In this document: piece after piece, positions 27,001 to 51,000 of the stretch
Layout of the letters: each line of letters starts with the position of its first letter
Position numbering within the stretch: the first letter of the stretch is position 1
DNA from: an uncultured Planctomycetales bacterium
Lineage (GTDB): Bacteria > Omnitrophota > Gorgyraeia > Gygaellales > Profunditerraquicolaceae
Assembly (NCBI GenBank): GCA_964354585.1
Contig: CAYHAI010000102.1
Span: 1-53,774 of the forward strand
Direction of reading: 5' to 3'
Length of the DNA: 53,774 bases
Translations under genes and position numbers: made by a program
Notes under the pieces: model-generated
What the model was told of the DNA's origin: nothing
The model's database searches: none
Seen by the model: the letters and a program-made list of their open reading frames with translations, nothing else

Positions 27001-30000
27001 CTTGCGGCGGCTGGGGATGGGGCGGAGCCTGAGATTCCTTATGTGCTGCCGACTGGCTATCCTCTTTCCTAATATGCGCGTTGGCTACATCGGTCTCACC
27101 TGAGGCAATCTTCCTCTCTAACTCCAGCAGGGCCACCAATGCCTCCATCAGCATCACATCAATCTCGGTGTGGCCGGCTAAGATAGCAACATTGAAGTTG
27201 GACGAGCAACTTTCGCTTATTCTTTCCCACATCGTCCTGATTTGCTGCGATTTATCAATCAGTTTATCTTTTGCCTCTTTTACCTTTTCCTTGTCTTTTG
27301 AAGCAAGCCGTATGCTACAATAGGAGCGTTCCTCTTCACTAAGCGCATTCCAGACGCTTTCCAAAAGTTCTAAGTGGGGCTCAATTTCTTTCATACGATT
27401 AAATGTCTCTTCTACTTTATCGCTCAATCGTTTCAAGACGTATGTTTTTTCACCTAATTGCGGGACAAATCCTATACAATGGCTATGCAGATATTCGTCT
27501 AAACTTGCGCGTTCGGCCTTAAATTGTTCTTTTAGCGCAGGAGCAAAATATACATTCTCAATAATCATTTCAATAATACGCTCTTTGTCAAAATTATTGA
27601 GCGCGTAATTATAAAGTTTGAGCACCCAGCTGTTTGGCCCATCCTCTGAGAAATAATTCAATATCTCTTGTTGCGCCTCCAAATCTTGATTCTTGAAATG
27701 GAGCACGCTGTTATATATCGCTACCAATTGCCTGATACCTGAATTACTCTCCACTAACGGTAAGAGGCTCTCCCCTACTTCATGGAAACTGATTAAATGC
27801 TCTAGAAGATAAAGATATTCTAAGGCCTGCTCAGCTAATTCCAGCGTCTTACCCTTTAAAGCCGCTAATTTATCTCCTGCCTTTGCCGGTAAAACCTTAA
27901 TACTATCTATACAAAGCAATTTCCAGGAAGGTAATTTATCTAAAATGGGCTGAATCATGTCTGCAAATCTCCAAAGGCCCTCTATGCGTTTTCTGCTTGT
28001 AGGAAGGCCATCCGAAGCAGCCCACTCTGAATCAATCACCGTCACCAATGTCCCGGATTCAATCCAACGGCTCTGCGCTATTGAAACAGGCTCTTCCATT
28101 AAGATATGGCCAGAAGCTTGGGACGGTTCTGGATTGGTAGTCGTTATTGCAAATGGTTCTACAATGCCAAAGACTTGATAAAAGGCGGCGATTTCTTTAA
28201 CTGTAGCCTTTTTAGCCAATTGGAAATCTTGGCGCGCTGCTAAAAGCATCTCGGCTAAAAACTTATCCCGCTCTTTTTCTGGGATAAGCCTGGCGCGGGT
28301 AATTTGACGCTTTAACAATCCTACTATAACTTCTAAGATTTTTTCACGTTTATGTTTCTTGAGATTGGGAATGAGGCGGCCAAAGTGGTCAACCTTGATG
28401 ATTAAAAGGATAGTGCCAGCAGCCTTAAAGCAGGCAGAGCGTTCGGAAAGGAAAACCGTCTTGCGCAGGATGGCTTGCCAGTAGCGCGGCGCGCCGCGCA
28501 CAAGATTATTATCTCTTGCCCAGTCGCGGAAGACCTTGTTAAATACTGCTTGGTCATCAGCATAACCCTTAATCTTTCCTAAATGCACTTGGTTGCTAAA
28601 AGTGCTATAAATGGTCATAAACTGGGCTACTTTGCGCGACTCCTCCACAATATTACAGATTAAATTCAACTTTTCTAAGATTTTATCTTTCTTCTTTTGC
28701 TCCTGAGTCGAAAGCCCTGTGGTAAAAAGAAGCCCTGGCTGGATAGTGAGTGTTAATTCCTCAGCCAATTTGCCGGAGTCGATAATTTTACTGCGCACGC
28801 CCAGAAAATCGGGTTCGCTCAAATAGGGTAGCTGAATAAATGCTTTTAAATTATCCGCGGCTGTTTTCATCGCCTCGGGCGCCTCTTGCGTCAATAATGC
28901 CTCGCGGATATTTCTAGCCGCATCATAAACCTGGTCAAATCTATTGGCGCCAATTTGGCGCAGTCGTAAACGCAGATGCTCTAAATAGGCCAGTTCACTA
29001 TCTATCTGGTGTAAACGCACCTCCGCAAAGGGGAGACTAACTTCTAAACTGCTCAGCGCAGTTTTAAGATAACGCACTTTCATTAAATCTAAGGCGGTCT
29101 CCAGTTCCCGACGCATATCTTTCTTCGCTTCTACTCTTTTGCCTTTTAAAGAAGAAGTCAGCGCTTCTATTCTCTGGGCAATCTCTTCCAGCTCTCCGGG
29201 CTCATCCGTATCCACCAGCGGCGCTAATTGCGTACTAAGCGCGTTTATTTCTTGGGCTAATTTCTGCGTGTTTAAGTAATCTTTGGCTAAACCGGCAAAA
29301 ATCTTATCCAGAATGCGCTGCCAGCGGTATAACGTCCGAGTTTCTGGCTGCGCTTCTGGAACCGAGGCGCCCGTCTTTCTTCTATATCTACCCATCCAAA
29401 TCGTAATCTTACCGTCTTTTCTCTGCGTAATCTTGGCCCTGCTTTTCTTGCGCTCCAGACGTTCGTCTAACAACTGCTTCCTCTGCTGCGCAAAGGTATG
29501 CGAGAGACCTTTGAAAATCCACAAGGCGGCCATCTCATTTTTTTCTTTGATATACCTTAAGATTTCTCCGGCGCGGGTGATTCTACTTTTGCGGATAGCT
29601 CTTTTCAGTGCCCCCAGGCTTATCTGCACTACTTGGCCGCTGAATCTCTGATAAGCTAATCTAGTCAAGCGCTGTTGTAACTTTCTGATTTCTTCGTATT
29701 TGGCTTTAGCCCGAGCTTCTCGGGGTAGAACGGTCTGGCGGTAAAATAATCTCTTAGTCGAACGTTCTTTTTGTCCGCCCGCCCCGCCCCGCCGATGCGC
29801 CCGTGGACAATCCTGCGCCCCCGCCGCCAACCGCTGCCTAAGCTGCTCGGCGACTTGGGTGAGGGTGAAGCCCTGGGTGGCCATATCCTTGTATATATAA
29901 TCGGGCTGGGAATAGCTATCTTTTTTATCGACTAATTTCTTTAAAATCATATAGCCAAATGTAGCCATATATTCTTCAAAATCAGAGAAATGTGGTTTTA

Positions 30001-33000
30001 AGGCATCCATAGATTCTTCTGCCCTTTGACCTTGCTTTATATTTGTTGCAAGAGACTTTATATGCTCTACCACATACATTTGTATAGTAATGAGATGTAT
30101 ATGACGGATCATCTGAACTACATCGCTGAACTTAATTTTATATTTATCTTCTAACTTAATTAATACACCGAACTTAGCTACAACTGTCTCCCATTGTTGA
30201 ATTTCTTTTATATTCCTATCAAAGTCAGCGTATCTATATAAACTTTGTAGAGCTTCATCATCCACTTTTCCTGTTAAGTCTTTAATCTTTATATATAAAA
30301 TATAATTAGCAAAAAACACCATCGTCGCAAACATCTCGCATACCAACGTCCTCAACTTCTCACAAAGCCTTGTCTGGAATTTCGCCTTCTCGTATTTCTC
30401 CAAAATCCCCGCCGCCTCATCCATAAACATCACCCGTATCAACTCCTCGTCCTTCGTCCTTCGTCCTTCGTCCTTCGTCCTCAACGCTTCTCTCAAAATC
30501 TCCAGCGCTGTCTCAAGATTCACCACATTCCCCCCAAAATACGCCCACAAAGGTAAGACCTCTTCCATAATCCTTCTGGCGGCCTCCTGAATATCTATCT
30601 GGCCTGCTTTCAGGGCATCGTAAATATTCACAATCGCCGTATCCACCTCTTCCTCTGAGCCAACCAAAGGTGCAGTGGGGTATTGTACCTTGGTGTTTGG
30701 AACATAGAGATAGGCATCCACCAGATTGGCAAAGCCGGCTCGCTTGGACATCTGCTGTAACGAATTCAAATTCTTGAAGACCAGGGTTACCTCTAAGGGC
30801 GGCTTGAGCCCTTGGCGCCTCATTTCTACCAAGAAACGGCTGATCTGAAGCCAATTACCTTGCAAAATCTCTGCCTTGGTTTTCTTCCATGACTCGGTTA
30901 GCGCTGTGCACTGCTGTCGGGAAACTGGAGTTTTGGAGACCGCAATAAGCTGGGCAATAAATTTTTCCGCAGACAATGTCCAGAGCTTCAGTGGATCCAA
31001 CAGTGAGTCAATTACAGTCTGAACCTCTGGGTTTAGCTCAAGGAAAAAGTTTCGGTCTAAGATGGCAATTTGATTGTCTTTCGTTACCCGGAAGTTGCCC
31101 ACGTGGACATCGGAATGTGCCGTACCTCGTTTTAGTTGCTGGACATAATTTTTCACGATGAGGCTTACAATCTGCTTCATATCGTGGCCCTGTTGCAAGA
31201 GCGTCTCCCACTGGGTTAGATTTTCACCTTCTACATATTCTTCGCGCATAAAGTAGCGACTGGCCGGACCCCGTGATTGTGGCACTGTCAACTGATAAAT
31301 AAAGCCGGGTGCGGTAAACCCATTGTTTTGACTTCGAAACACTGCGTCCTTGCGTAGGAAGTCCTTAAAGTTTACGTCGCGCTTAATCCACTCCTTAAGG
31401 TCATCCAAGAGTAAGAGGGCTATGTCGTACTTGCGACCGTATAGACGTTGCAATTCCGTCAGCACTTCCTCAATGTAGCGGACATTGGTCTCCAAAAGAA
31501 ATTCTAAATTAGGATTTAATACCTTAAGGGCTTCGCTCTTTTCGTCAACCTTAGTCGCCTTATACACGGTCATCAGCGAGCCACCGCCAACTCGCTCCTC
31601 AATTCGCGCGACTTCCTGCCAGAATCCAGACCACTCCCGCTCCAACAGAGCAAGTGCGGCTAATTTGCTCTGACCATACACCTGATCAAACACCTTGCTA
31701 AAGACACCCTGTTCCTCGTCGGAGAGTTGCACGAATTGGGGCAAAAGCTGCAAAAACCGCACACCTACCGAACCAATGCGTTGCGCCACCTCAACCGCAA
31801 ACTCAAGTGGCGACATCACTGGCGCCTCTTGGCTGGGCGCGGCCACGCCTCTGGCCACTAACTGGGAACGCAAAAGCTCCTCGCCATACAGAAGCCACTC
31901 TCCCTCATAACGCCAAGATTGCTTTTGATGTTTTTTGATCTTTTCTGCCAACTCCTCAAGCGTGAGTGCGCCACGGCCTCTCATCAGCTTGAACAGAAGT
32001 GAGAAATCTGCCAGCTCGACCCAGCCATCAAGCACTCCCCCCCAGCCAGATAAGCGTTCAGGTGGAATGGCAATCCGGTCAGCCAAAATCTGCTGAAGCG
32101 CAAAATACAACGGCTTCCACGACTCTATCGTTCCCATAGCGCTAACCAGCTCCTGGATTATTCCCAGAAGGCCTGATTTACTCTGTGTGTCCACAGTCCG
32201 TTCCACTAATCCTTGCAAAAATTGTCGGCGCTTGCTCGGTTGAGAGAGCAAACCGGTGTCTCCGGTCAAAAGCTTCCTCAGGAGCGCATACTTGGCGCTG
32301 GTATCCATCCGCAATATCAAGGCCTCGCACTCCTCGACAAGTTGAATTCTCTTATTGACGAGCTTAATCACCTCGGTGTCTTTATCCATTGTAGATTCTC
32401 TCTCAGCTAATACATCTATATTTGAGATGGTCTCATAGAGCACTGCTTTGAGCGCCGCATCATCATCCCAAGACCTAAGCAAGGCCATCAGGAATTCATG
32501 CCACTTCTCTTCTTCTAAGTTCGCATTGCTTAAGATAGCAGCCAGGCCAAGTTCTCGGCTGCCCTCGCAGAACAAAGTATCAAGTGACTCTACTAACCTG
32601 CGCTGTGTTGTATGGAGTTCTTCCTGCGTGCGTGCGTCCTGCTCAATAAACTCGTGGAAGCGACGCAGGTCAAATAACTCCGCGCCATCGCGCTTGAAGA
32701 GCGCATCCAACTTCTCATTAAATGTCAGGGTTGGCCAGAGACGTGCATAGTAATATGACTGAAGCTGAAGTCTAAGGAAGGGGTCATTAACCACTGACAC
32801 TACCCGGCCAAGCTGTGCCAGTGCCTCGCGTTCGGGTGCTTCTGGTAGGGCCAACCACAACTGACTTAAGATGTGGCCAAACGCCTTGCGCTCCTCTGCC
32901 ATAATTTTAACTACCGGCACCCCCAGAGACTCCAATTGTTCAAGGTGAGCAAAAAACTCCTGCCAATTAGAAAATCTGGCGATATGCTGTGCTAAGATTT

Positions 33001-36000
33001 TTGCAAAGAGCGGCTTAGTAATCGCCGCCGCAGAAATTACAGCCTCGGCATCAAGAGAAAAATCAAGTTGCGCATCGCCAGAGAAAACTGGATAAAAGTC
33101 AGCGATTTCCTGGTCAGACCACTGTGGTTCAAGACATCTTCTTTCCACTGATTGCAAAAGCCGATCCAAATAGGTTCGGTCGCTGGAGGTAATCATACTG
33201 ATATATCGCAGCTCCTTGTCCTCTACGTTCGTCTCATCTATTGAGAAATAATCTCCTCCTTCTTGTCTTGCCAACGTTGATAGCTCTTGAATTACTAACC
33301 TTCTTTGTTCATCTTGGCCGAGTTTCGCAATATGATAACGCGAAGATGGCATAATATAGATTAGTGTGACTAAGCCTCTAAACAGCCAAGCCTGCTTCAG
33401 GGGTTCAGAGAACGAAATAAACTGTTCCCAGGCCCTCAAAGCACACTCATACAGCCGAAATAATACATAACCTTGCAAGCGCGAGCGAACCTCTAATCTG
33501 TCTTGTTCGTGCTCCAACAAGACCACCTTTTCATACTCATTTTTTGCCTTATCAGCAGCGTCAATCTCAGCTGTAACTGACATGAGCTTCTCTGATGTGT
33601 CAAAATAATCTGCCAGCGCAATGTCGTTAAAGAAAGCAATAACTTCCTTAGTGCTGCGATTATGCAGATACTCTTTCATCTCCTGCAAAATTTTTCGGTA
33701 GTCTGCTTGTTGATATGGCCTGCCAAAAGCGACTTTGCCGCGCAGTTGTTGAGCAAAGTCCTGCGCCCGCGCGTCAATTTTTTGGCGTTTCCACCAACAA
33801 GGCGCCTCTGCCTGCCTTGACTGGGTAGATACTGCCAGGCGCCTGCCTTCTTCTGTTGCCTCTACCTTCTGTTTGGCAAATTCAAGTAAGTCTTTCTGCG
33901 ACTCAAGCACGGCATAGAGCCGCTCTATCGTCCGCTCAAAAACTTCATCTACCTGCTTAGCCTCAATTCCTTGAGCGGCATAGAGCGCTCTGAAACTTGT
34001 GGCTAAGGTATGGGCCAAGTTTATATAACGTTCAATATTGGGCTGTGTTGGTTTTGTATTCAGCGCTAGTTGCATGATAAGCCATTGCGCCAGACGCTTG
34101 GCCAGTTTATTCGGCAGAATAGCTATTGGCGGAACAGCCAGCCCCTGAAACTCCGCAGAGCGCAGAACCTCGCTCATAGCCCCAACATCTTCAGGATGAA
34201 CCAAAAGTGCCTCATCTGCTTTGCGTCGTGTTTCTAACGCCTCCACAGCAGCCACCAGCTTCCCTGCCTTTTTCCTCGGCTGAAACCACGCAAGCCCCGC
34301 GTGCAACTCATAAAAGAGCAGCCTGGCTAATCCTCGCTGTTTGGAATTTGACCAGTTCAGTTCGCAAAAAAGTTCCTCATCTACTCGCCCAGCCAAACAT
34401 TTGAGAATTGTTTGGTTGACGCTCTGGCGATTACCCTGTTGTTCTGGTTTGACGAGTTGGATAAGAGCGCTAAGGGCAATGCCCAGTTGTCTGGTGGGCA
34501 GTTCCTTGGCAATGTTCAACCGCCGCTTCTGGACGGTTTCATACTGATTCCCCTGGATAAATTTGGGAACCTCGCCTCCAAAGTAGACTTGGTCAAAGGG
34601 AATCGCCGCAAGTTGTTTTTTAATCTGTTCTGGAATCTCTCCGCCCAATTCGCTGGAGAGCGTATCTATATCAAAGAAGTAGAATAGGCTTTCAATATTC
34701 AGCGCCCGGTCCTGAAGCGCCCCATGCGCCAAATCAGACCCCTTGATTCTGCCCGGCTCTTTCTTAAACTGCTCTAACCGAGTGAAGTAGACGACCCGAG
34801 CAAGGGGGTTGACCTGAAATTTACCAAACTCTCCAAACATCCAGCGCAGGTCAGCCTCATATTCAAGCGCACGTTGAACGCCAATAACTTGCAAAATCGC
34901 CTCAATGGTCTCGCGAATATTAGCAGTGGACTCTCTTAGTTTTCCTTCAAGTTGCTCTGCGACCTTCGCATGCTCTCGTTTATGATGCACTACCTCATGC
35001 ACCAACACCGCCTTCAGCTCCTCGCGATACTTCACAAACCCCAGTAACCCTGATGCCACCAGAATGGTTCCATCAGGCAAGACAGTAGCATTAATCTCCC
35101 GCCACTCCGGTAAGACATATAGAGAGTAGTTTGTGTCCTGCTCACCAAGAGCTTCTTTCAGCGCCTCCCGCGCATAGACCGTTACTGGATGCTCATCGGA
35201 GAGCCTTCCATATTTGAAGAAAAACCATTCCCTCATATAGGCACTAAGCCGATGATATCTCGCCTGCCCCTCGGCCTCAGCATTTGCCACTAACCGCTGC
35301 CTAAGGTCTTCGGCGACTTGAGGGCTGGGGACGCGGCAAGACTCATCAAACACACTTTTTAGTTCTTCTTTTTCCTCATCGCCTTTTACCAAATGAGAAA
35401 TAATTTTCAGAATATTTTTATATGCCCTATGTCCTGCGATATCTGTGATTTTTCTCATTCCATGAAAGTGCACATCTGTCAATACAATATCTCCATTACT
35501 TCTGACTCTAATATGTTCTTCGTCATCTAAATCCGTAACATCGGGCTCAATATTTAAGTCGCTCATTTTTCTTACCAACGTACCTAGTTTTTTAATAAGC
35601 CCTTTTCTTCCTTGATTATCTAAGTCCCAAAATGCTGATTGTATGTTGTATTTAATAAATTCTTCAATAAAATACCAGATACCCGTTCTCTTATCAAGAA
35701 TATGGCCGATGGGAATAGCCATAATTCCCTCCCCTGATAAAGGTAAATTTATATCATACTCAAGACTGCCTACTGCTTCTCCTTCACATTTCAGAACACA
35801 TGAGTTCGTAAGGAAATGGGCTCTTCCTTTCCAATATTCTCTTACCGCTCTAAGCGCTTCTAAATTTTTGACAACGTAGCAGGGTTGGTTTCCTACTGAG
35901 CCTATAAAACAAGGTACTATTTTCCCTAAAGTGGATATTTTACCTTCCAGGCCCAGTTCTCTTTCAAAATTCTGCCTGATTTTTTCTACGCCCATCTCCT

Positions 36001-39000
36001 TATCAACCTCTGCTGGCGAGCCAGTGTGGGGTTTGGGTATGGTGGTAACTGGTTGTATCTTCTCAGCCTTATAAACCGCATAAGCTCTTAGCTCATCTAA
36101 GTTTCCAGGAACCATACTAAAATCGCTTATATCTATTTGCGGTTGTGGTTTAAATTGAACGCCTAATTCTTTTCCCAGGTTTAAGAGTACTTCATCTAAA
36201 TAATATAGGTCTTTTGCAATAAAGGCGATATCATTTGGGTTTTTAGTTCCTTTAAATACAGTGATAGGAAATGCAGCGGGAGCATTGACAAAAATATAGC
36301 CACCATCAAGATTTAAACGGCTTACAATAGGTTCTATCATCTTTTTTATCTTAGACTCAAAATACCTCTTTGCATTATTTTCAACAACTTCAATGTCTGA
36401 ATGTGAAATATCAAGATTTAGCCTAAACCTTAATAAAGCTGCTAATTTGTCATCTCCAAATACATCTGTAACTTCCTGTATAACAGCTAATAATGTTATG
36501 TAATCAAATTTTTTATCTTTTATAGCATCATAGGAAACAAAAATACTTATTTTCTGCTCAAGGGCAAACACTTTATACAGTTCCTTTTGCTCCTCTATTA
36601 CAGACTCATCTATATCAATAACGTTAGTTTTAAGCCCCAGTTTAGCAAGTAAAATTGGCAGATAGTCGTTCCTGCCTGGACCTATAACCAGGGCGCTTTT
36701 ATCCTTTATCAATCCCATACCTGATACTTTTTGAGCAATTTGATGTTTCGTCTCATCATCAAATATAACTTTTCCTGAAATTCTATTTATATCATCAACA
36801 ACTGCTTTGACTTCTTCCTGAGTTATGGGCTTGGATATTCCACTGCCAAAAAGCCGAAACTCACCATTCCCCCAGAAAAGCTGGCGGGTTTCTATATAAT
36901 ATTGCGCTTGCTCAGCTGATATCCTCAAGGTTGGAGGCATTCCTGAAGAGGCCATATTGTTTATCACTTCAACGCAAAATCCATCTTGACGTGAAAGTGG
37001 TTGTATGTTATAGTTTCTTTGCTTAAGGAGGTGCTTTAAATGACTAAAGATAATGGAATGGATATTAGGATCAGAGATTATATCAGCTGTGACCCCGCTA
37101 TCTGTGGAGGAGATCCAGTCTTCAAAGGAACTCGTATCGCCGTTTACCTTGTACTGGACCTGATTGAAGGGGGAGTCAGCATCCAAGAGATTCTTAACCG
37201 CTATTATTCTCAATTGTCGGAAGAGGCAATCAGGGCGGCTCTGCATTATGCCAGCGAACTTATTAAGAGGTCTGAGTTCATCCCTTTCAACCCTGTAGAG
37301 GCGTAGAGTGCGGTTCCTTATTGATGAAAATATACCTAAGGAATTGGCTTCCTGGCTTAAAGAAAGAGGACACCTTATATTTTGCGTTGCCAAGGGAACA
37401 CCTGATGAAAAAGTAGCCGCGCTTACAAAACAACAAAAGTCTATACTCTTAACCCAAAACAGGCATTTTGCCAACTCTTTAAGGTTCCCTCCTCGTGATT
37501 TCCCAGGAATCATCAGAATTAAAATCCATCCTTCATATATTGGAGATATTACTTTTTCTTTAGAAAGACTATTTACCGAATTTACTGAAGAAAAACATTT
37601 CAAAGGCAAACTTATTATTTTAGAGAAATACGGATTCTTTAAACTTAAAGAATAGCTTTGCGTTGGCTTCTGCTTATCCCGCCCCTTCTTCCCCAGCCCG
37701 CCCAGATGCGCCATTTGTGTGCCGCCCATGTTCCTGCCATTTAGATTTTGGTCATCCGGTCCCCGACAACCGGGAAGTTCGGAGATGTGGGGCGGGGTAT
37801 TTTGAGGCTTTGCCCCAAGTTCACCCAGACCTTGAGGAGAATAGACAAAGGCAAACTTAGTGGTACGAAGAACGTCCGGGTAAATGTCATTAAATGCATC
37901 CTTAAAACTTAATAGTTGAAAATCTGATAGTATTTCCCAAGCTGCCGCTGCCTCAACTCCGAAAGATAATGTAGAGCCCCTAAATAAACACTTCATATCA
38001 TCTAGGTCTAATATAATAATGATTAATCCTTTTTCAGCTATTACCTCTTTTGCTATGTGGATAAAATTAGACAAAGTATGTGGACTTGGCGCAAAGATTG
38101 TAATTAAATCTAAATCATATTTGTCACTCCCTTTTACTTTTAAATCATTAACATCAAAAAATGTTACAGGTCGGTTATCTTCTCGGGCAGCTATAACAGG
38201 CTCGAGCAAATTCTCTATTCCAAAGTAATCTACCTCTATGAAATTTCTCTTCAATAACTCCTGCATCGTGAGTGTGGGCCGGCCAGAGCCTGCTCCAAAA
38301 TCAAGCCCACAAATACTCTCTTTGCCAGCAAAGAAATCACATATAAACTTTTCGAAAGAGTCTAGTTCTACTATATTCTGCTTTGAGTCCTTCTCCAACC
38401 GCTGCCTAAGCTGCTCGGCGACTTGGGCGAGGGTGAGGCCTTGCATGTGTAACATTTTTGCGATTTCCTCTTTTCGTACAGGCCCATAATTTTCAGGTTT
38501 GTCGGTTAGATTATGCAAACTCATATAACCAAATACGGCTAAATCTTCTTCAAGATTAGATAACCCGTCTTTCAAAAGCTTTACTGTCTCTTCTTGCGAC
38601 TCGTCCCACTTAAACAAAGACATTGTTTTGGTATCTTTAAAGAATGCTAGTATTCCATGTTTATGAAGTAGGACGTCATACATAGCCACTGCCCTATCCG
38701 ATAATTTCCCAAAACGATTTAAACTCTCTAAGAACTTCTCCCATTGTTCTCTCCCTTCAATAGAATACAAAAATGCAATAAGGCCTTTTGGGCCTTCTTT
38801 TTTAGTTAATTTAATTTCAATGTTTCTGCTTAATTCAATAATTTCTCTTTTAATATTATTAAACCAATAGTAACAAGAAAAGAAACTGAGTGCCGCCAGC
38901 CTGCGATAATTAAACCTCTCTAATTCCTCAAATAGCTTTGTCTGTTCTTTCTCATCCTTATACCTCTCCAAAATCCCTATCGCCTCTTGCATAAACACGA

Positions 39001-42000
39001 ACTCTATCAATTCCTCGTCGACGTGTGACGTGTGACGTGTGACGTGTGACCCGATGACTTTAATCCCTTGCCTCAGTATCTCCAGCGCTGTATCAGCATT
39101 AGGCACATTTCCCTCAAAATACGCCCACGCCGGCAAGACCTCTTCCATAATCCTTCTGGCGGCTTGCTGAATATTTATCTGGCCTGCCTTATAGGCATCG
39201 TAGATATTCACAATCGCTGTATCCACTTCTTCCTCTGAGCCAACAGTGGGCGGGGTGATGTTGAGATGTTTAATTTCACTTGAAAGCGGCTGGCGGGCGA
39301 GGTCAAGGAGAGACTGCGGTACAATATTAAATAAACCGAACTCTGCCATCCTTACAAGGTCCCTTTGCGCCACAGTTCCCAATTCTAAGCTAAGCCCACC
39401 ATCGCTTTCACTTTCATCTATTATTCTTGCATTAAACTGAAATCCTCCTTGGCTAAGCTTTGTCATCTCTTCCCGAATCTCTTGCGCAGTTGCTTCCTTG
39501 CCGTTTAAGAAAAATTTCTTTATTCCGCTGGGTGGAATAGGGACAGAATTCTTACTCTGCTGCTCTGATGGCTGCTGCCCCTCTGGGCCGATACCGCTGT
39601 CCTTCGCAAAGGCGCAAAAACCATTGACATTCTTGCCTATATCAGGTATATTATTTTTATGGCGAAGAAGGGCAAAACTAAAAGCTTCCTTACTGCTTAT
39701 GCTCCTGATTGCCGCAAGCGCCACCAGCATGAGCGGGATAAAAATGAAATAGTAGAATTTGTGGTGCAATTGGAAGTCGTAGTAAAAGGCAGTTGGCAGC
39801 CCGTAATTAGATACGATACTACTCATGGATTTGCTCATTGCGACATCATTCATTATAGTGGAAAGACGGAAAAAGTAAGGATGCCCACTCTTGATTATAA
39901 AGAAGCGTTGACCTATGCTGATGAAGACCTGAATGAGAATTGGCAGACTTACCGCAATCGCTATTTTAAGGAGGTAATTAATGATTAATGAGAAATATTT
40001 TTGGGAACTACAACGAACTCTCTCTGCAGAATTTAGTAAGTATGTCCTCGCCCATCCAGAGATAGACGACCAAATACCGGATAATGCCCAGATAATCTTC
40101 CAACTTAAGGGTAATGCGGATTTTAATGCCTGGAGTAAAAAGATAAATCTCTCCCAAAGAGAACCAAGCCAACCACTGATTATCGTTGAGATAGATGACC
40201 TGGCGCCGCCCTTAGAATCAAGGCTGGTCAATCCCCACTTAGAGGTTGCTTTTAAGTAAGTTTGTCTTATTGTCCCCACCAAAACCACAGCTAATACTAA
40301 TGTCCCGATGCCCCACCCATAACTACTACTCTGCCCGCCAAAACCAAATCTGCCAAAACCCGCGGCAAGAGAAGGCGTAGCAGAAGCAAGAAGGATGCCG
40401 AAGATGAATATGAATAGGCCAAGAATTGTGCTTGAACCCGGCGAGTCTGTGGAGGAATGCCAAGGTTCCACATACCCTAAAGCTAAATTCAAAACTCGCT
40501 GAAAAATTACATTATAATAATCTGGTATCTCCTGAATTTTTACTTTATGAACATTTTCGGGTCCTACAGTAACAGTGCTGCCGTCTTTGAGTCCTAACGT
40601 AGCTGAAATCTCAAGTTCGTCACTAACACGTTGTGCCTCTTTTAAAGTATTAATAAATTTTTTCCAGAGTTCTCCATAGAAGAAAATGCCCCGATGTTCT
40701 TGGCTTAAAGAAATCATTGTGAAAATTGCTTGTGTAGTATACTGAAGTGAGTATAGAGTCTGGGCTTCTCCTTCTTTTATTCTTGCGATTAGCTCTTCTT
40801 CTGAAATAACTTCTCCTGTAATAAGATAAGATATTGTTGCAATACATGCCTGCCAATTTTTGAATACTCCAAAATCTAATGTTTCTGTATGTCCCTGCGG
40901 AGGTTCAAATCTCTTCTTCTTTGCATAGCTTAATGCCTCCTCTATAGTAAAATTAAGTTCAGTCATGCTGCTTAATCTGAAAAGAACAGTTAATGTGAAA
41001 GCAAATAAATTTTGCAAAAATTCTTCTCTTTTACTTAAATCAACGGTCCTGCTAAAGTAATCAGCCGCGTCAGATTCCAAAATCGGTTGGATTTGTTTAT
41101 GATAGATTTTTTGCAGGGCGGCTTTGGAGGGACGAAGCATCTGGGGAGAGCCTTGGAATTGGGCGAGGACGGGCATTAATAATTCGGCTTTCTTACGAAT
41201 GCCCTCTGGCACATAGTAAAGCGCATCTTTGCCGGTTCCGATGCGTTGCAATAAATGCAAATATAGCGCTAGCGCCCATAAATCATGCTCAATGGTTGCT
41301 GGCTTCACCTTTAAGCCCTCTGCTATTTGCTTTCGGCTGCGGGCTTTTTCTTCAGTTGTGATTTCCTTCTCGCAAAGCCAATCAAATACTCCCGGGATAG
41401 AGCCAGAGGGGGTGGTATCGGATTTTTCAACCAGCTGGTCATCAAAGCTTTTCATCGCCAGAGGATATTGTAGTTTTGAGAGCCACCCCGGTACACACAA
41501 ACGCCAAGTCTTTATCTTGCTACCTTCTCTGCCTAAGCGCACTTCTTTGATGTTCGCTAAACACTCAAGAAATCTACCTATGGCTAAACAATAATCCCTC
41601 ATTCTCCAGATTAACTTATCTGTCAATACCAATGAAGAGCCCTCCTGCAATAATACCACCACGTCTGTCCTTAAGGGATGATTTAGATTTCCTATATTGT
41701 GTATGGCTTCGTAATGGAGAGCTTTTAAAAGGATTTTTAGATTCTCATTCTTGCTTCCCTGGATTTCCCTATCAAAGCTTATCTGATTCAGTAAGTCACA
41801 GATATGCCTTGTTTGGTCATCCATTTCTTTTAAAATTTCTTTTGTTTTCTCTGAAAGCTCCTTTTCTGGAGATAGCTTCTCAATATTCGCTAGAATTGCC
41901 GCGATTATCGGCCCGAACTTTTCTTTCAGGATGCGCGCCTCGGCGTTGACTCGCTGGGCTGGGGTTTGGGTTTGTTTAGCCGGCGGTTGCCTGGCGAGTT

Positions 42001-45000
42001 CGCCGAGGGTTTGGGCAATTTTTTCGCCTGCCAACGGCAGCCTAATCGTAAATGTCGTGCCTTTGCCCTCTTCTGACTCCGCCGCAATGGTGCCGTTGTT
42101 TTTCTGGACTAATTCTCTGACAATTCCTAAGCCAAGGCCGTGGCCTTCGCCTTTACTGGAGAAAACAGCCCTGCCGCTGTTAAAGGCATCTACCTTATCT
42201 TGAGGCATACCGCTTCCCGTATCGCTGATCCTGATTTCAACAGCGTCTTCTGCGCTGCGAGTTTTTACTGTTACTGTGCCTTCGCTTTTCGACATAGCCT
42301 CGCAGGCGTTTCTGAGAAGGTTAATGAAAACTCTAAACAAGTCGCCTGCGTTTGTTTTTAGCAAAGATCCCCCTTGGGCATAATCTCTATGGATTTGAAC
42401 TTTCGCAAAAAGAGCTACTTCCGCTACCAAAGCGGCATCTAGCAACTCCTTGGGGTCAACCTCTTTTTCTTCTTGAGCAAATAGTTCTAAGGTGTTGGAC
42501 AAAATTAAAGATATGGCCTTAGTTCCATATTCAAAGAACCAAGCATCTTGAGCTATTTCTGGTTCTGGAAGACGATGCACTTCCCTACTTATTCTTGCAA
42601 TCTCTGAGTTTAATAAAGCGATTCTCTCAGGAGTGAGTATTTCTATCAATTCTTTAGCTGCCTCTACATAAGAAGATACATTTGGCCCTAAGTCGTCCTC
42701 GTTGTCGCATATTGTGTAAGCAGCATCCCTTAACTGCATTACTACCTCTTTACATCGTGTACAAAACGCCTTAATATTATCATCTGCGGTGTCTGATTTA
42801 ATCCAGCCTACGTTACCAGTCAGTATATTTAGCATGTTCATCATGTCGTGATGTATGGCCCCTAGTCTTCTTGCCAAACCGCCATTGTTTTGCGGTCCTA
42901 TCTCCCTCAAATCAACTCCGGCGGGTTGGGCTTGTCTTTTATCGCTACCGGGCGATTCAGTAATTTTCTTCAAAACAAGGATTCCTCTTGGAGTAAAATT
43001 GAGGTTGCCTTCGTCTATTCCCAAAAATTGCTTAGAAACCAAAGAAAAACCCGATTTTCTAAACAACCCCTCCCACTCCTCTATGTTTTTGAACGTAAAT
43101 GGGGCCTGCATATTTAGTCTCCCAAGCACGCTATTGTTTAACCAATCGCAAAAAGCTAAAACAGATTTTCTTTGACTATCACTAACTTTTAAGAATTTTG
43201 TTAACAGCCCACTTTTGTAAATAGGCTCAATTTCATTAGAAAATGTATCTTCCAGCACAATTAGTATGCCGCCCATTTTTAAGGCACGGTTTATATCGTT
43301 TAAAATATTTTCTTGGCCGCCTCTTTCAATATGATGAGACACATAGCTCAATACTGCCGTATCAACTATACCTGTATCTATTGGTACCTTATCTTTTTGT
43401 TGCTGCAACCTAAAATCTACTGAAGGATTAGATATGCTGAGTCTATTTTCCAAATCTGTGGCAATAACTTTTTCTACTTGGGTGCTGTTTTTCAGTATTA
43501 TTTCTGATAATAGGCCGTTTCCACAACCTATGTCGGCAACTAAAGAACCTGCTATAAACTCGCGAATTAGCCCAAACTTGTGTTCAGCTCGCCCTTTAGG
43601 ATCATATTTTTCAAATATTGAATTAAACTCTGAATTTAAAACGTACCTCTTAATAATAGAAAAAGCCTCTTCTTGATCCTCGTTTGTACACTGCTCTGAC
43701 AAAACATCTAACAAGCCTTTTATGGCAGGTTGTGAAATTCCAAGGCGTTCGAAACTATCGTAAAATGCAGCAGTTAAGAACGCCTTTGAAGCTGGATCGG
43801 AAAAAACTACAAGAGGGTTTATTGGACGCTCTGAGTCCGTCTTATCTTCTCCTTTTGAAGATCTGCCGCTCCCAAAAAGCCGAAACTCGCCATTCTCATA
43901 GAAAAGTTGGCGGGTTACGGCAAACCAGATTGCTTGCTTAATCTCTATTCTAATTTTTGGCATATCTGGAGCCATTTCATTTATAGCCACTATTTCTTCT
44001 ACGCCTTTAACTTGGAGCTGATGCAGCTTGACCAGGGCCTGCTCTTTTTTCATTAATTCATTTGCCGCCTGCAAAAGTTTCGGTAAAACAGGTTGTAGGC
44101 CTGCTTCCAAGTGAGAAATATATTGGAAGTGGAAAGGCTGGCGTGCAAGTTGCCTACCCAGGACTTGGCCAAATTTTTCTAGGCTAAGCCCTAATGCTTC
44201 GCGGACCTTCTTTAGTCTCTGGCCGGCTTTTTCTCGATACACTCGCCCTGCAGCAATCAAAAGCTTAGGTGGAACAACAAATCTTCCTGTCTCTAAGTCC
44301 CCAATATAATCTTCAGTGTAGGGTTTCTTGCGGTAAGGTTTCTTGCGCCTAAGTTGTGCTGCCAGCACTTGACCAAATTCTCTCTGGCTAAGGCCTAATA
44401 ATTCACGGATTGCCTTAATTCTTAAACCAGCTTGTTCTCGGTATAATTGCTTGGCAGCATGCAAAAGCTTCAATGGAACAACAGGTCTTCCTGCTGCTAT
44501 TTTAATAATATGTTTGGAAAAGGGGTTGCGCTCAAGCTGCTCACCCATGACCTTACCAAATTCTTCCCAGCTAAATCCTAACCGTAGGCGGATGTCATTG
44601 AGTTGCTTGCCCAATTTTTTTTGATTCTTCCGATACACTTGCTCTGCGGCATCCAGAAACTTCTGCAAAAACTTTATGGAGGCAGCAAATCTCCCTATCT
44701 CTAATTGAGCAATACAACCCCTGCTGAAAGGCCTATGGCGCTTAAGTTCTCTAGCAATAACTTTACCGAATTGTGTCTGTTCCATTCCTAACGCCCGGCG
44801 GATATCCCCTAATTTCTGGCCGACCCTCTTTCGATTCTCTTCAAATACTTGCTCTGCGGCATAAAGAAACCGCGGCGGAACAAAGTCTAAACCTTTTTCT
44901 AAACGAGAAATATACGCCCTGGTGTAAGGTTTCTTGCGTCCAAGTTTCTGAGCAAGGGCCCGGCCAAAATCTTCTAAGCTAAATCTTAGCGCCTGACGGA

Positions 45001-48000
45001 AAGCCCTTAATCTCTGGCCAGCCCTGTCTCGATACAACTGCTCTGCCGCTTTCAGAAGCCCTGCTGAAATATGACAGCCTCCTGCAAGATAGGAAACGAG
45101 TGCTTCGTTGAATTCTTCCTGAGTGAAGCCTAACAATCTACGGATTTCCTTTAGCCACTGGCCAGCTGTCTGAGCATTCACCACCTTCCCCTCAAAATAC
45201 GCCCACTCTTCCATAATCCTTCTGGCGGCTTCCTGTATAGCACATTCTATCCTTTCCCTTGCATTTATTGTGTAAGCGATAGAAAGGCCTGTTAACGGAT
45301 TCTTTTTCTCCCATTTCTTTAAGGTGGGCAAGGCTTCCCGAGCCTCCTTACCCATATCTCCTAACTTATTTAACATAAATTGGGCGGTCAAGTCATCAAC
45401 TTGAGGAATCTGGTCAAGAAGATAGCTTACTATATCCTTATATTTAATCTCACAGAGGAATTCAATAATACTGTCGCAGAAGCCTCCTTCGGTTTCTTCT
45501 CTATCTTTAAGTCTCTTAAACAATAAAGGAGCTGCCTGTTGCTTTACTTTCTCCTGAGCACCAGTAACTATTGCTATTGAACTATAACGAATATTATTAT
45601 CCTTATGCTCAATGGCGCTTATAAGCTCAGGAGTTACCTCTTCTAATAAATTGCCTATAGCGCTTGATAAGATTCCCGGATCCATATGTTCAGGTTGAAA
45701 CAGATGCTTAAATAATTCTCTTAACGCTGTGTCTCTATCATAAATACCAATCTGGCCTAAGGCTATTGCTGCTCTTGTCTGCTTACTTGTGCTACCAGTC
45801 TTCAGTACCTCAATAAATTCAGGTATTGCTCGGGCAGAGGCTTTTCCGCATTCTCGAAGAGAACTGGCAAAGCTCATCGTATTGGAAATGGGCTCTCTTT
45901 CATCCAAAATCCATCTGACTAAATCAGAAATATAGCCTCTGGTAACTTTGGGTCGGATAAGAACAGGCCCCTGTTGGTACGTACCCATTAGCTGTTGATA
46001 TTTTCCTTTCTCAGTGAGTCCGGGTATACGTAGCGTATTATTTATCCCTATATAAACTCCCCTTACGGTCGATAAACTTCGCATAACTTTATTAAGCAGT
46101 GACAGATTATCTTTCATGGATTTAATAAGCCCATCGGTTAACTTTTTAAAACTGAAAGCATCGTTTACAGCACAGGATATATCTCTTGAAATTATTCTTA
46201 TGTAAGGCCTTAAGGTTTCTTCAATGGCATCTAAAAGAAGAGCGCGATTTTGATTTTGTTCGTGGATTATTCGCTGCTCTAAGTCAAATAAGGCTTCTTC
46301 GGATGCCTTAAGTAAATCAGCCATATGAGTATCAATTTGTTGCAGTAGTCCTTTTTGATTTTCAGAGAGAGCTTGAGCAGATAACTGCTCTATTTTCAGT
46401 CCCACTTCCTTCATAATAGGTTTTATTCTTTTATGTAAAACTCGCGCCTCTCTCCTTACTCTCCAAACAGGCATCTCTTTTGCAACCGGAATTTCTTCTT
46501 TTTTCTCTCTGCCTATCTTTACAGGCAAACAGATAGTAAAGTCAGAACCTGGGGTGATACGCCTGCCCAACGCTATCCTCTCAACTATCCAAAGGCCCCA
46601 ATCTAATGCTGAAGCAACACTTAACATGAGGTCTTTCTGGTCTGCGCTATAACCATAATTTGGCTCACTTGAAGAAAATCCAGACAATGCCTTGTATGGC
46701 TGCCCGAGTAGCAACCATAAATTTTCCAAAGTCCCCGCTTGGCATCTTACCTCATAGATATCAAATGACTCCTGGAGCAATGTCCCTGAGGATTGCATTA
46801 AGTCAAATACATACTTTACCTCTTCCTTAGTAAAATGCTCGCCTTGGGCAGCAAGTTCTCTTAAGGCGTCTCTTAACTTACTCACTTCTTTATGGCACAT
46901 TGTATAAAGCCGATGGACATACTTCAGTCCTAACCTTCTTACTTCTTCCTCGCAAGACCTACAATACTCCGCGAAATCAGATATATCAGTTTTATCTTTA
47001 CCTACTTCTTGGATTTGTTCTTGGGTTAACGACTCCACCGCAATTGTGCCGCCGGCATCTTTTATAGCATACCATGCCTCGGTTAATCCTAAACCCGTGC
47101 CGCCTTCCCGCTGAGAAACGTTGAAGTTAAATATAAGGGGTCTCTGCATTATTGGGTCTATTTTTAATAATTCTTGAGGAATGCCTGGTCCGTTATCTGA
47201 AATAGTTATCTTGACTAAGCCTTTTTCTTCGACTAAAGTAACTATAACTTTTGCTTCTTCACCTTGTTCCGCATTGGCAAAATGTACAGCGTTATTTATG
47301 ATGTTGTCTATAGCGCTCTTAAGGGTTAGGCGATTTGATGAGGTTTCGCATGACGCGGCAATATTGTTTACAACTGTGACGTATCGCCTTTTTTGACATA
47401 TCTCAATAATTAATTCAACGATATCCTGGGCAGCATGAGGGGACACAGCAGTTGCTAGTTCTATACGGCTCTGCAATATCTCTATAATTTTACTTATATA
47501 GTTGGCTATTTTTTCAAATTGACTTACAAATAAATATTGCTTGGTTGAGGCGTCTCCCTGATAACAATAATCAAAATGCTTGCGCTTTTGTTCTATTTCG
47601 GTTATTTGCTTGCTTAGTCCCTCTGCAACTTGCTGTATGCTTTTTATATACTCTTGAGCCTCATCGGCTGTTAACTTGCCTTGCCTTGAAGATTCCCCCC
47701 CTTTTAAAATAATTTCTATTAGATTGCGCATTATATTGCCTGAAAAATTTTTGTCCACCTTGCTTAAATCTTCTCTCAGCTGTCCGGTAGATTCATTCAA
47801 ATTTAAAATTATATTCGCCAATTTCTGTTCAATGTTTGCTGAATATTGGAAAATATCGAATATTTTTCTGCCATGCCTCAAGCTTCTTATCGCCACTCCT
47901 GCGCGTTCTATTTTCTCTCTTTCCTCCGCCAGCGGCTGCCGGGCGAGGGCACCGATAAAGTCATGAGTAATAATACATATGGGGCTATCTGCATCTGTAT

Positions 48001-51000
48001 GGAGCGTATCTGATACGCCGCCAAAATTCGTTTTAGTTATTTGGCGATATCCTTCCTTAACAATATATCCCAAATAGATACGTAATTTTCTTTCTTCGCC
48101 GGGCTTCAAACGTAGAAAAATAAGGCCATTGGGTTTCAATAAGGAAAGTATGGGCGATCCCTGCTGCATTTGCTCTATTAAGCTAATCTCATACGGCGCC
48201 ATAATAAAAACAACATCAAACCTTTGCTGGTTTTCTTTGCTCGAAGCAAACTCTATCACATTTTGTTTAATTACTTCAGGGAAATTTTCCGGATGACGTT
48301 CAAACACTAACTTATCCACACTCAAGAACTCTTGGAATAAGCCGGGGTATCTACATTGCATATTTCTAGCAAAGTTTCCGGGGCCGGAGTATAGATCTAC
48401 AGCCGTAATCTTCTTGTTCTCTCCAAACCATTTCCGAATAAGTTCAGCGAAGTTAGAAGAATCTTCTAAAATCTTTGCTCTTTCATCAGTAGAAAGAGAA
48501 ACAGAAGACCCTTTATTTATGAGTTGCTGCTGGTTAGTATGGTTATTAACAGAACTCCCATACGCATCGCCTCCTCCCACCACCCCCGCCATTGCCCAAT
48601 ACCCTGCTGAACCGCCCAATCCCCCTATCCCCAACGCTTGAGTAAGAGGACACGAGAGTGAAACATCGGCGGGATAGAAAGTTTGACCTTGACTTATTAA
48701 TCTATTTATTGTATATATAATTACAGAGGTGATAAAAATGAGACTCAAAATTGTCTTAGAGAAAGGCGAAGATGGATATATTGTTGCCAGTGTCCCCTCC
48801 TTACCCGGCTGCCACAGCCAAGGCAAAACCGAGAAAGAAGCGCTTAAAAATATCAAGGAGGCAATCCTCTTATATTTAGAACCTAACCCCAAAGATATCC
48901 GCCCCGCTTCTAACCATAAAGTCCTTAGTCTGGCAATATGAAACCACCCCTGCTTTCGGGTAACGAAATTATCCGCGCCTTCCTGCGCGCCGGATACTTT
49001 AGAGTTGACCAACGCGGCAGCCACGTCAAGCTTTTTAAACCCACCAAGCAGATTACCCTTATTATTCCCAACCACCGAGAAGTTGACCGCTGGACGCTTA
49101 AAGGCATTCTTAAAGATGCTGAAATATCCGTAGAAGAATTCCTGAAGCTTCTCAGATAACCTTCCAAAGTTCTCTTTCTGAGTCATTATCCCCGCCAAAA
49201 CCGCAGCTAACGCTAACACCCCAATAATACCCACCCAATAACTACCGCCCTGCCCGACCAAACCAAATCTGCCAAAACCCGCGGCAAAACAATCCTGGGC
49301 GCTGGCAAGAAGGATGCCGAAGATAAATAGGCCAAGCCCAAGACCCGATTTTGAAGGCCCTCCTGGGGTGTCCCTTGCCGACAATGCTTCTTGTAACTGC
49401 TTAAATTTATAATTCATTACTGCAAGAGATTTGCTAAGGTCTTGATCCATTAACCTGAGGAATCCCAGTCTACGATTGAGATTATCCTGATATCTATTCG
49501 AGAAATATTTGAAGGCTCCATAGGATAGGTAGGGAATAATTATTGGTAAAGAATAAGCAATAATTACAGGCGAAAAGGAAACATCAGGTGATAAACAATA
49601 GAGCCAGATAAAAAGAGGGGTGGCAATGACGGCAAATATAGTAAGTATGGATAATATCTTCTTGGCTATCTCATCTATCAAATATAGTTTATCTACCACT
49701 GCGCGTTTCTCAAGAAGCCTTTCCAGCAATTGCTTATTTTTCAGATATCGTGCAACCAGGCCATCTTCAACTGTCTCTTTAGTGACAATCCCGAAAACCC
49801 CAGCCAGGCAAATTCCGCTTACTGGATGCATCCGCTGTCCCAGCCAGCGCAAGATATCCCATACCTGGCTGATGAGGCCTGCTTTAATCAGAAGGATCCC
49901 TAAGGTTATTATTCCGCAAATCAATAAAGCAAGGGAAATAATAAAACCAGATAAGTAAAGCTCTATTTCTTTTCCTTCGCTAACCAACCTCTTATAATAC
50001 GCCAGGTTATCCTCCCTCTGAATTAATTCCTTAGCCGGGACAAATCCTGGAATGGACCTTTCCTTGCCTTTATACACCACCAGAAGACCACAGAACTGGC
50101 TATCACACCCTCGGTAAGCAATTCCCGTAGGTATTACCGTAAGTTTCGGCCGCTGCTTGCCCTGCGTCAATAATGTTTGCAGTCGGGCTAACTCCGCTTC
50201 CTCACTGAAATCATTATTTTTAAACTTTCCACCCGCAATTATCGTCATCGCCAGATTCGTTCCCCAGATTCCCGCTCCTGCCACACCCAAAAGCTGACTA
50301 ATTTGATGCATAAGCGCTGCCTCGCCGCGCAGGAGCGCATCCAGCAAGAGGCCAAGGGTGAGGGTGGCTGCAGCCAAGAAGATTAAAATTAAAACCGAGG
50401 CGCTGCCAGTTACTCGGTTAAATAAACCCTTGGCGACTGGCTTTGGCCACCTTTCAGAATGCTTTTTAATTATTGGCCCCCATAATTCCTTATAATCCTT
50501 AACTTCTTGCAAAATAAACCGGAGAGCCTCGTCAATCTGCTCCAATGCCTTAAGCATCTCTTGAGTTACCCCAGGGGATGCGCCTAGCCAGTTCTCACTC
50601 ACGGTACTAATGGTAATGGTAAAATCCAAAACGCTATATTTACCTTTTACTATTATCTGTCTATGTTTTAAGAGTGTACCTATAGGTAAATAATCTGCCT
50701 TTATTTCTTTTATGGTGCATTTTCCGATAGTTTGATTGATTTTAAGAGATTTAGGTGCGGCTTTGGCGGAGGTGTCTTGAGATGACGGCGCAGGTTCTTC
50801 TACCAATGATTTATACCTGGGGTCTTTGGCTAAAAGTTGCAAATAGGCATTGTATTTTTCATCTTTAGCTATTCTGATATTCTTGATAATCAGTTTCTCA
50901 AAGTTGCTTATATCTTTGGGTTCACCTTCTTTATTAAGCGAAGGTTCAAGAACCTCACTTAACCACTTTTCGTTAATTCTATCAACTGCTTTTCCATCGG

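Follow-up and report, generated by a model that had tools for sequence, protein, structure and literature searches.

Why should two different heptanucleotide repeats, the unit of neither being a multiple of three, stand at the same place in two related domains of a single enormous gene? The question is raised by contig CAYHAI010000102.1 (assembly GCA_964354585.1) of an uncultured Planctomycetales bacterium that GTDB places in the Omnitrophota. All 53,774 nt of it were analysed (the window), and one minus-strand open reading frame (ORF) runs through its whole length. A preliminary description of this DNA had placed the repeats at 30444-30482 and 39021-39050 and had taken their shared position as a sign of a selected hypermutable spot, a possible switch driven by slipped-strand frameshifting. 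Here, we find that the arrays are real and that gain or loss of a single unit closes the frame in silico. As for their shared position, we favour, with evenly balanced confidence, a long-lived coding microsatellite that has been tolerated in a permissive junction loop and filtered to in-frame lengths.

Two perfect heptamer arrays within one giant reading frame

Arrays were detected with TRF and the bases at their edges were checked in the sequence; the features are collected in Table 1, where amino-acid numbers are those of the visible ORF. Both arrays, called B and C after the module copies that hold them, consist of perfect 7-nt units (100% matches), and the TRF boundaries differ from those first described only by imperfect bases at the edges. 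Read in register, array B is GGGTCAC (ACGTCAC)x3 ACGTC, its end directly abutting a conserved GAC GAG GAA on the 3′ side, and the 3′ unit of array C overlaps the conserved Asp-Glu codons GAC GA(G). At 35 nt (array C) and 31 nt (array B), these are the two longest perfect short-period arrays of the ORF, the next being 16 nt, and no period-7 array of at least three copies arose in any of 200 codon shuffles of the ORF (0/200). On account of both results, the arrays are non-random and not the product of chance. Each unit is found only at its own array within the window. The frame that carries them is free of stops from one end of the window to the other, in agreement with the more than 17,000 codons claimed at the outset.

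The X XXY YYZ slippery heptamer pattern of programmed ribosomal frameshifting is matched by neither AGGACGA nor GTCACAC, and no stimulatory structure was seen in the array flanks, whose folding is no stronger than that of shuffled sequences (z from -1.6 to +0.9, DNA parameters). The same folding result leaves a hairpin-driven slippage hotspot unsupported.

Table 1. Coordinates in the window of the giant ORF, its module copies, their linkers and the heptamer arrays (aa, amino acids; HTH, helix-turn-helix)
Feature	Position	Strand	Description	Evidence
Host ORF	2..53773	(-)	17,924 codons, no stop, runs off both window ends	ORF analysis
Copy A	45128..45247	(-)	block 1 only, aa 2843-2882, then Xre-type HTH at linker position; no heptamer array	
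Module copy B	38396..39256	(-)	aa 4840-5126; block 1 = 39068-39256	self-BLAST, alignment
Hypervariable linker of module B	39014..39067	(-)	aa 4903-4920, GIKVIGSHVTRHTSHVDE	alignments
Heptamer array B	39020..39050	(-)	(GTCACAC)x4.4 on coding strand, aa 4908-4918, GSHVTRHTSHV	TRF
Module copy C	29828..30676	(-)	aa 7700-7982, uncharacterised all-alpha cassette; block 1 = 30488-30676, block 2 onward = 29828-30445	self-BLAST, alignment, AF2
Hypervariable linker of module C	30446..30487	(-)	aa 7763-7776, ALRTKDEGRRTKDE	AF2 model, family alignment
Heptamer array C	30447..30481	(-)	(AGGACGA)x5.0 on coding strand, aa 7765-7776, RTKDEGRRTKDE	TRF, sequence, frame simulation

Gain or loss of units closes the frame

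When units were added or removed in silico, a change of one or two units (+/-1 or +/-2) placed a stop, in both arrays, 11-33 codons from the array start, and a change of three units (+/-3; 21 nt, 7 amino acids) left the frame open. For both arrays, a short in-frame state is reached by removing three units. The expectation that a one-unit change breaks the frame and truncates the protein thus holds in silico, and the question that the preliminary description had left, namely whether the +1 and -1 frames downstream are open, is settled: both close quickly. The truncated products are predicted to end at residues ~4920-4941 (array B) or ~7776-7788 (array C), with the shifted-frame tails ...GRGVDTGDVYG, ...RTRS, ...STRN and ...RRRGIDRVRVYARGDRDFGEV.

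On the 3′ side of each array (30417-30446 and 38990-39019, coding strand), the codons for DEELI..(V)FM form Shine-Dalgarno-like GAGGAG/GAGGAA motifs, which are followed at both arrays by in-frame GTG/ATG codons after 9-18 nt; the stop of the -1-unit frame is a TGA that overlaps TTGATA. It is pure speculation that re-initiation at such sites after a slip could split the protein, beyond truncating it.

The arrays encode a hypervariable loop at a cassette junction

Modules B and C are all-alpha paralogues, 44-49% identical by chunked self-BLAST, and copy A is a weaker third copy. Both arrays fall in the same linker, as had been noticed from the start, with ...TALEILR(E/Q) before it and (D)EELI..(V/F)FM after it. 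Over the 65 codons upstream, block 1 of the two modules shares 84-89% nucleotide identity, which is ~60% just past the array, and whichever two copies are compared, conservation is lowest at the array position, with 10-40% amino-acid identity there and 70-90% in the blocks on either side. The linker is also where the module family varies most in length, from ~5 to 27 residues over 18 instances. An AlphaFold2 (AF2) model built from 10 family sequences (predicted local distance difference test (pLDDT) 74.9, predicted template modelling score (pTM) 0.77), which replaced a weak earlier model from two sequences (pLDDT 60.7), places the array-encoded residues 66-77 of the module in the loop that connects helices 54-66 and 76-94. 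In this loop, the pLDDT drops below 50 at residues 70-73, and it is 81-93 in the flanks. Foldseek gave no significant fold match for the module in the PDB.

An exhaustive profile search located the module in 13 proteins of 360-5,475 residues, one of which (P0004) is annotated Candidatus Omnitrophota. Two metagenome contigs that are 99.9% identical (L001 and L002) carry it in another stop-free giant ORF, and the L002 ORF has nothing but the module in common with the window protein. Profile scans of genome contigs gave no match with an alignment of modules B and C and only a single contig, L003, with six close copies; this sole GTDB match is labelled Planctomycetia. A scan of viral contigs for the module gave no match.

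Several members break precisely at the linker. In P0008, the module is present from block 2 onward and block 1 is absent in all three upstream frames, and the module also breaks there in P0012 and P0013. Because block 1 is missing from P0008 and, in copy A, is followed directly by an HTH domain, the linker can be recognized as an unconstrained junction between cassettes; it tolerates an unconstrained peptide and length, and it is a site of cassette swapping. The absence of block 1 from the three upstream frames also rules out P0008 as a natural frameshifted (OFF) allele. The close cluster variants P0014-P0016 were uninformative, since the linker is the same in all of them and only the called start codon varies.

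About 12 residues past the end of module C lies a third non-triplet simple sequence repeat (SSR), (GGCGG)x3.2 at window positions 29778-29793 (-), which encodes RRGGAG (amino acids 7994-7999). Codon shuffles yield 0.03 period-5 arrays of at least three copies per ORF, and a change of +/-1 or +/-2 units in this SSR leads to a stop within 11-44 codons.

The surroundings of the module were also recorded in its relatives. In L004, L005, L006 and L007, a module-bearing protein of 2-3 thousand residues comes directly after a same-strand ORF of 3.5-5.9 thousand residues, 1-80 nt separating the two, and this arrangement suggests that several very long genes form a conserved locus. The module-bearing proteins of these contigs mostly end in ...SLQALQAA, preceded by a conserved C-terminal domain with '...LILYADD...', and in L004 and L005 a small ORF and a tRNA-synt_1b gene come next. 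A ParE toxin gene (L010, 2395-2652) lies just downstream of the gene for P0008, the protein with block 2 only.

A decayed heptamer tract and duplications at the linker in relatives

The linker of P0002, a distant family member, is periodic over seven residues (ALRITPH/ALRVTDE), and its DNA (L004) reads GCTTTAC GGATCAC ACCTCAC GCATTAC GGGTCAC GGACGAA, a decayed heptamer tract of six units. Autocorrelation at lags 7, 14, 21 and 28 is 0.48, 0.44, 0.44 and 0.45, respectively, as against ~0.22 elsewhere, and the linker is the top period-7 window of the 2,005 in its gene (z ~5). A stricter test, in which lags 7 and 14 were contrasted with other lags, regional maxima served as the null and low complexity was controlled, was passed by 3 of the 14 linkers that could be tested: those of window modules C (0.71, null 0.06+/-0.06) and B (0.70) and that of P0002 (0.45, reached by 0/140 null regions). 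Under this test, the apparent period-7 signal of the P0001 linkers proved to be purine-rich low complexity.

Array B and the P0002 tract are identical at 22 of 29 nt in an ungapped alignment. Their best 14-mer matches at 12 of 14 positions, a value reached by 0/3,000 random segments of the P0002 gene; the match has P = 0.0004 with shuffled linkers and P = 0.008 with a conservative null in which unit identity is randomised and the array structure preserved. The codon phase of the matching DNA differs, being GGG|TCA|CAC|GTC in array B and CGG|ATC|ACA|CCT in P0002, and the similarity is therefore one of DNA and not of peptide. The unit of array C, in the rotation GGACGAA, overlaps the Asp-Glu codons that open block 2 and occurs once in P0002, directly 3′ of the tract; this match is mostly due to the conserved codons and is given little weight. 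Three further leads were set aside. A protein-level 'heptamer compatibility' of ALRIT in P0002 was non-significant by estimate; a similarity between the DNA of C and L002 across a frame offset (GAGGACGA-AGGA / GAGGACAAGAGGA) was too short and purine-rich, as was a shared GGATTA at the start of the linkers of B and L002.

In L003, which holds the gene for P0003, a 27-nt tandem duplication lies exactly at the linker (AILKEVLKP/AILKKALKE; 10189-10240, TRF), from which it follows that tandem duplication is a recurrent way of lengthening the loop, in that case by frame-neutral units. A second, in-frame duplication of 21 nt (10084-10130, EAAGKFA/EAARKFM) is found slightly upstream, inside block 1. 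In 69 kb of the relatives' genes, no other non-triplet array with a period of at least 5 was found. Most linkers of the family, including those of the short-linker members and of L002, are without an array; together with the lack of others in the 69 kb, this indicates that hypermutability has not been maintained across the family. Apart from the linker, positions 4-725 of L002 consist of an 87-nt (29-residue) tandem repeat of 8.3 copies with 83% matches and a higher-order period of 261 nt.

A tolerated microsatellite as the best explanation

These results may be brought together as follows. The arrays would have arisen by replication slippage in the permissive loop between block 1 and block 2 of a shuffled cassette, a loop that probably carried heptamer-periodic DNA for a long time and of which P0002 would preserve a decayed form. 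In copy B, one old unit type (xxGTCAC) would have been re-amplified to a perfect array, and copy C would instead have newly amplified the 7 nt that overlap its conserved Asp-Glu codons. If the loop peptide is unconstrained, the same DNA could come to be read in different codon phases among the copies. The sole filter would then be that the total length must keep the downstream frame, which would leave both arrays three units above the short in-frame state, and truncation by a slipped unit would be a tolerated by-product and not a designed switch.

The preliminary description had argued that two unrelated repeats at homologous sites point to a selected hypermutable spot. The comparison with relatives does not bear this out. 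The decayed tract of P0002, with its 22 of 29 identical nucleotides, lies at the same linker, and the site is a hotspot of indels and duplications across the family, with a loop of low predicted confidence and the 27-nt duplication of L003. Moreover, the arrays are short and lie at 27% and 43% of the visible ORF (codons 4,908 and 7,765), the true start being further upstream, unlike tuned phase-variation SSRs, which cluster near N-termini, mid-protein SSRs being generally suppressed (Lin & Kussell 2012, PMC3315296). Since shared ancestry and a loop tolerant of any peptide and any length would account for the positional coincidence, no selection for switching need be invoked.

Several points weigh against this explanation. 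Two perfect frame-breaking heptamer arrays in one gene, with no others in the 53.8 kb, exceed what a permissive loop alone would predict, and there is the further non-triplet SSR, (GGCGG)3.2, just past module C. To arrive at three added units by single steps requires truncated intermediates, or else rare multi-unit slips, which means that truncated states must at least transiently have been tolerated. The perfect identity of the units implies recent or ongoing slippage, and a hypermutable tract that did nothing but harm ought to be worn away by selection in large populations. Neither hairpins nor any other mutational cause local to the arrays came to light, and the relatedness of array B to the P0002 tract rests on 29 nt (P ~0.01).

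The arrays as candidate contingency loci

The CTCTT repeats of the Neisseria opa genes are SSR contingency loci with translational phase variation. The arrays of the giant gene could be candidates for the same class, that is, tracts that slip fast and reversibly toggle the product between full length and truncation after residues ~4,920-4,941 or 7,776-7,788, which would make the population heterogeneous for a protein that is presumably exposed at the surface and interacts with prey or host. We regard this as possible but doubtful. As in SSR contingency loci such as the tetranucleotide loci of Haemophilus influenzae, the repeats are perfect, non-triplet and within an ORF, a one-unit slip shifts the frame and abolishes the full-length product in silico, the shifted frames of both arrays closing early, and the host gene is large and probably encodes a surface protein. 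With 4.4-5 units, both arrays exceed the threshold of 3 units applied to heptanucleotide SSRs in Haemophilus surveys (PMC2651432), and there is a precedent for a heptamer in mid-ORF in the large adhesin gene hmw1a of H. influenzae strain PittAA, which has an intragenic (AATTTTG)14 with an associated frameshift (PMC2651432). A heptamer tract also persists at the site across diverged copies, differences in reading phase show that frame-changing indels have occurred there before, and the perfect unit identity implies recent slippage. Action on prey cells has, in addition, been proposed for the giant proteins of Omnitrophota (bioRxiv 10.1101/2023.11.21.568195), and genes of this kind are typically phase-variable.

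Other observations fit a switch poorly. Characterised heptamer switches have 10-38 units (PMC2651432), whereas the present tracts measure 31-35 nt; they lie tens of kilobases into the ORF and not near its 5′ end, in contrast to the positional tuning described for such repeats (PMC3315296), and they form a pair at paralogous sites. Both are ON in the assembly, and they are known from one assembled sequence. In relatives, the site is decayed, without an array or expanded by frame-neutral units, and shared ancestry with a permissive loop already explains the coincidence of position. The bearer is an uncultured environmental bacterium of PVC (Planctomycetes-Verrucomicrobia-Chlamydiae)/Omnitrophota type rather than a host-adapted pathogen. 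A bolder version, in which active switches at the cassette junctions of a giant gene of a predatory or episymbiotic bacterium produce nested truncated isoforms or separately translated pieces of a protein of more than 17.9 thousand residues, and have been kept across diverged lineages, seems to us unlikely.

Recombination, chance and artefact

Another explanation is that the joint of two independently shuffled cassettes is marked, and perhaps favoured, by the heptamer tract, whose short repeats would provide microhomology for the illegitimate or homologous exchange by which mosaic giant genes are assembled; slippage would then restore the frame. Three observations speak for such a junction element: the linker is the exact breakpoint of the module in P0008 (with block 2 alone), copy A (with block 1 and HTH) and P0012/P0013; L002 and the window protein share only the module; and the similarity of the DNA units of B and P0002 exceeds the expectation for a hypervariable peptide. 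The fall in nucleotide identity across the array between B and C points the same way, but it may merely reflect differing protein constraint. Against such an element, heptamer periodicity is confined to 3 of the 14 testable linkers and no repeat was found at other cassette junctions in the window, and we consider it distinctly improbable. Coincidence or an artefact of assembly or sequencing can practically be dismissed, as no codon shuffle gave a comparable array, the 53.8-kb frame is kept open by both arrays, both have conserved coding sequence on either side, at homologous columns, and an independent assembly (L004) has heptamer periodicity at the same site.

Relation to other repeat classes

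Microsatellites pass through a life cycle of birth, expansion and decay, and coding variable number tandem repeats (VNTRs) in permissive loops ordinarily use 3n units. The present case resembles such coding repeats in its low-confidence (pLDDT <50), length-variable loop, in its lineage-specific expansion, in the decay seen in P0002 and in the frame-neutral duplication of L003. It differs from them in its 7-nt unit, with which only every third allele is in frame, and in that homologous DNA is read in different codon phases.

Heptamers are over-represented among bacterial SSRs, and dispersed heptanucleotide families are known, such as the short tandemly repeated repetitive (STRR) sequences of the cyanobacteria Calothrix and Nostoc and GGGAATC in Xanthomonas (PMC4692102). 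The arrays share with these families the tandem heptamers, typically of at least 4 units, and an environmental bacterial host. In the dispersed families, however, one unit is reused at many, mostly intergenic, loci, whereas here the units differ from each other, are intragenic and do not form G-quadruplexes, and each is unique in 53.8 kb, which is one gene's worth of the genome. A cyanobacterial STRR origin, which GC content and the presence of heptamers had suggested, was rejected, as the units are not dispersed and the relatives are of PVC type. SSRs in coding regions, and candidate contingency loci among them, are a known class; it is the host gene that is unusual.

The host gene

The host gene resembles the Archaeovorin-type giant genes of Omnitrophota, for which a list of frequent domains has been given (West-Roberts et al., bioRxiv 10.1101/2023.11.21.568195). 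The Pfam mosaic of the ORF comprises HATPase_c, Xre-type HTH, methyltransferase, ABC1, M48, HEAT and Rce1-like domains together with PPDK_N, response regulator, sigma-70 r4, M50 and GT2. Of these, HEAT_2, HATPase_c, PPDK_N, the methyltransferases, the glycosyltransferase and the peptidases agree with the listed frequent domains; the host gene is likewise one ORF longer than 53.7 kb, and a member of its module family, P0004, is annotated to the same phylum. With this annotation and the Planctomycetia label of L003, a PVC/Omnitrophota origin of the gene is likely. SecA gave no match in the window, and the N-terminus, which in the Archaeovorin type bears C39/S8 peptidase and SecA-like domains, falls outside it. 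As a difference, tandem repeats, frameshifts and slippage are mentioned neither in bioRxiv 10.1101/2023.11.21.568195 nor in a 2026 preprint on Omnitrophota long proteins. A nonribosomal peptide synthetase/polyketide synthase (NRPS/PKS) megasynthase was ruled out as an identity by the Pfam content (ABC1, M48, HATPase_c and similar).

The composition of the ORF is uneven. Between 28000 and 36000 of the window, GC content is 46-48%, compared with 40-43% in the rest of the ORF, and the negative GC skew is stronger; this block, which holds module C, ABC1 and M48, might be separately acquired or recombined. Paralogous segments other than the modules are found at amino acids 9456-9598 and 10442-10582, 11133-11272 and 13490-13629, and 12825-12985 and 13271-13434 (79%, 77% and 54% identity, respectively), and a run of repeated HTH units occupies amino acids 2819-3248. 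These segments and units show the giant ORF to be an assembly of cassettes that have been duplicated and shuffled.

Implications

The expression and maintenance of giant genes are already puzzling. Read conservatively, the locus is a clean natural case of a frame-breaking microsatellite that persists in a coding loop, and the codon-phase differences of the repeat DNA show how unconstrained the linkers between cassettes are and that these linkers grow by tandem duplication. If the tracts slip appreciably, uncultured PVC/Omnitrophota bacteria would have, built into their giant genes, switches that alter which of dozens of domains are made. Active switches at the cassette junctions would give Omnitrophota-type giant genes their first described system of phase variation, and a modular isoform switch in place of a simple on/off one. 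Contingency-locus biology would then extend to environmental predators or episymbionts, and allele counts at the level of reads would offer a handle on expression states in situ.

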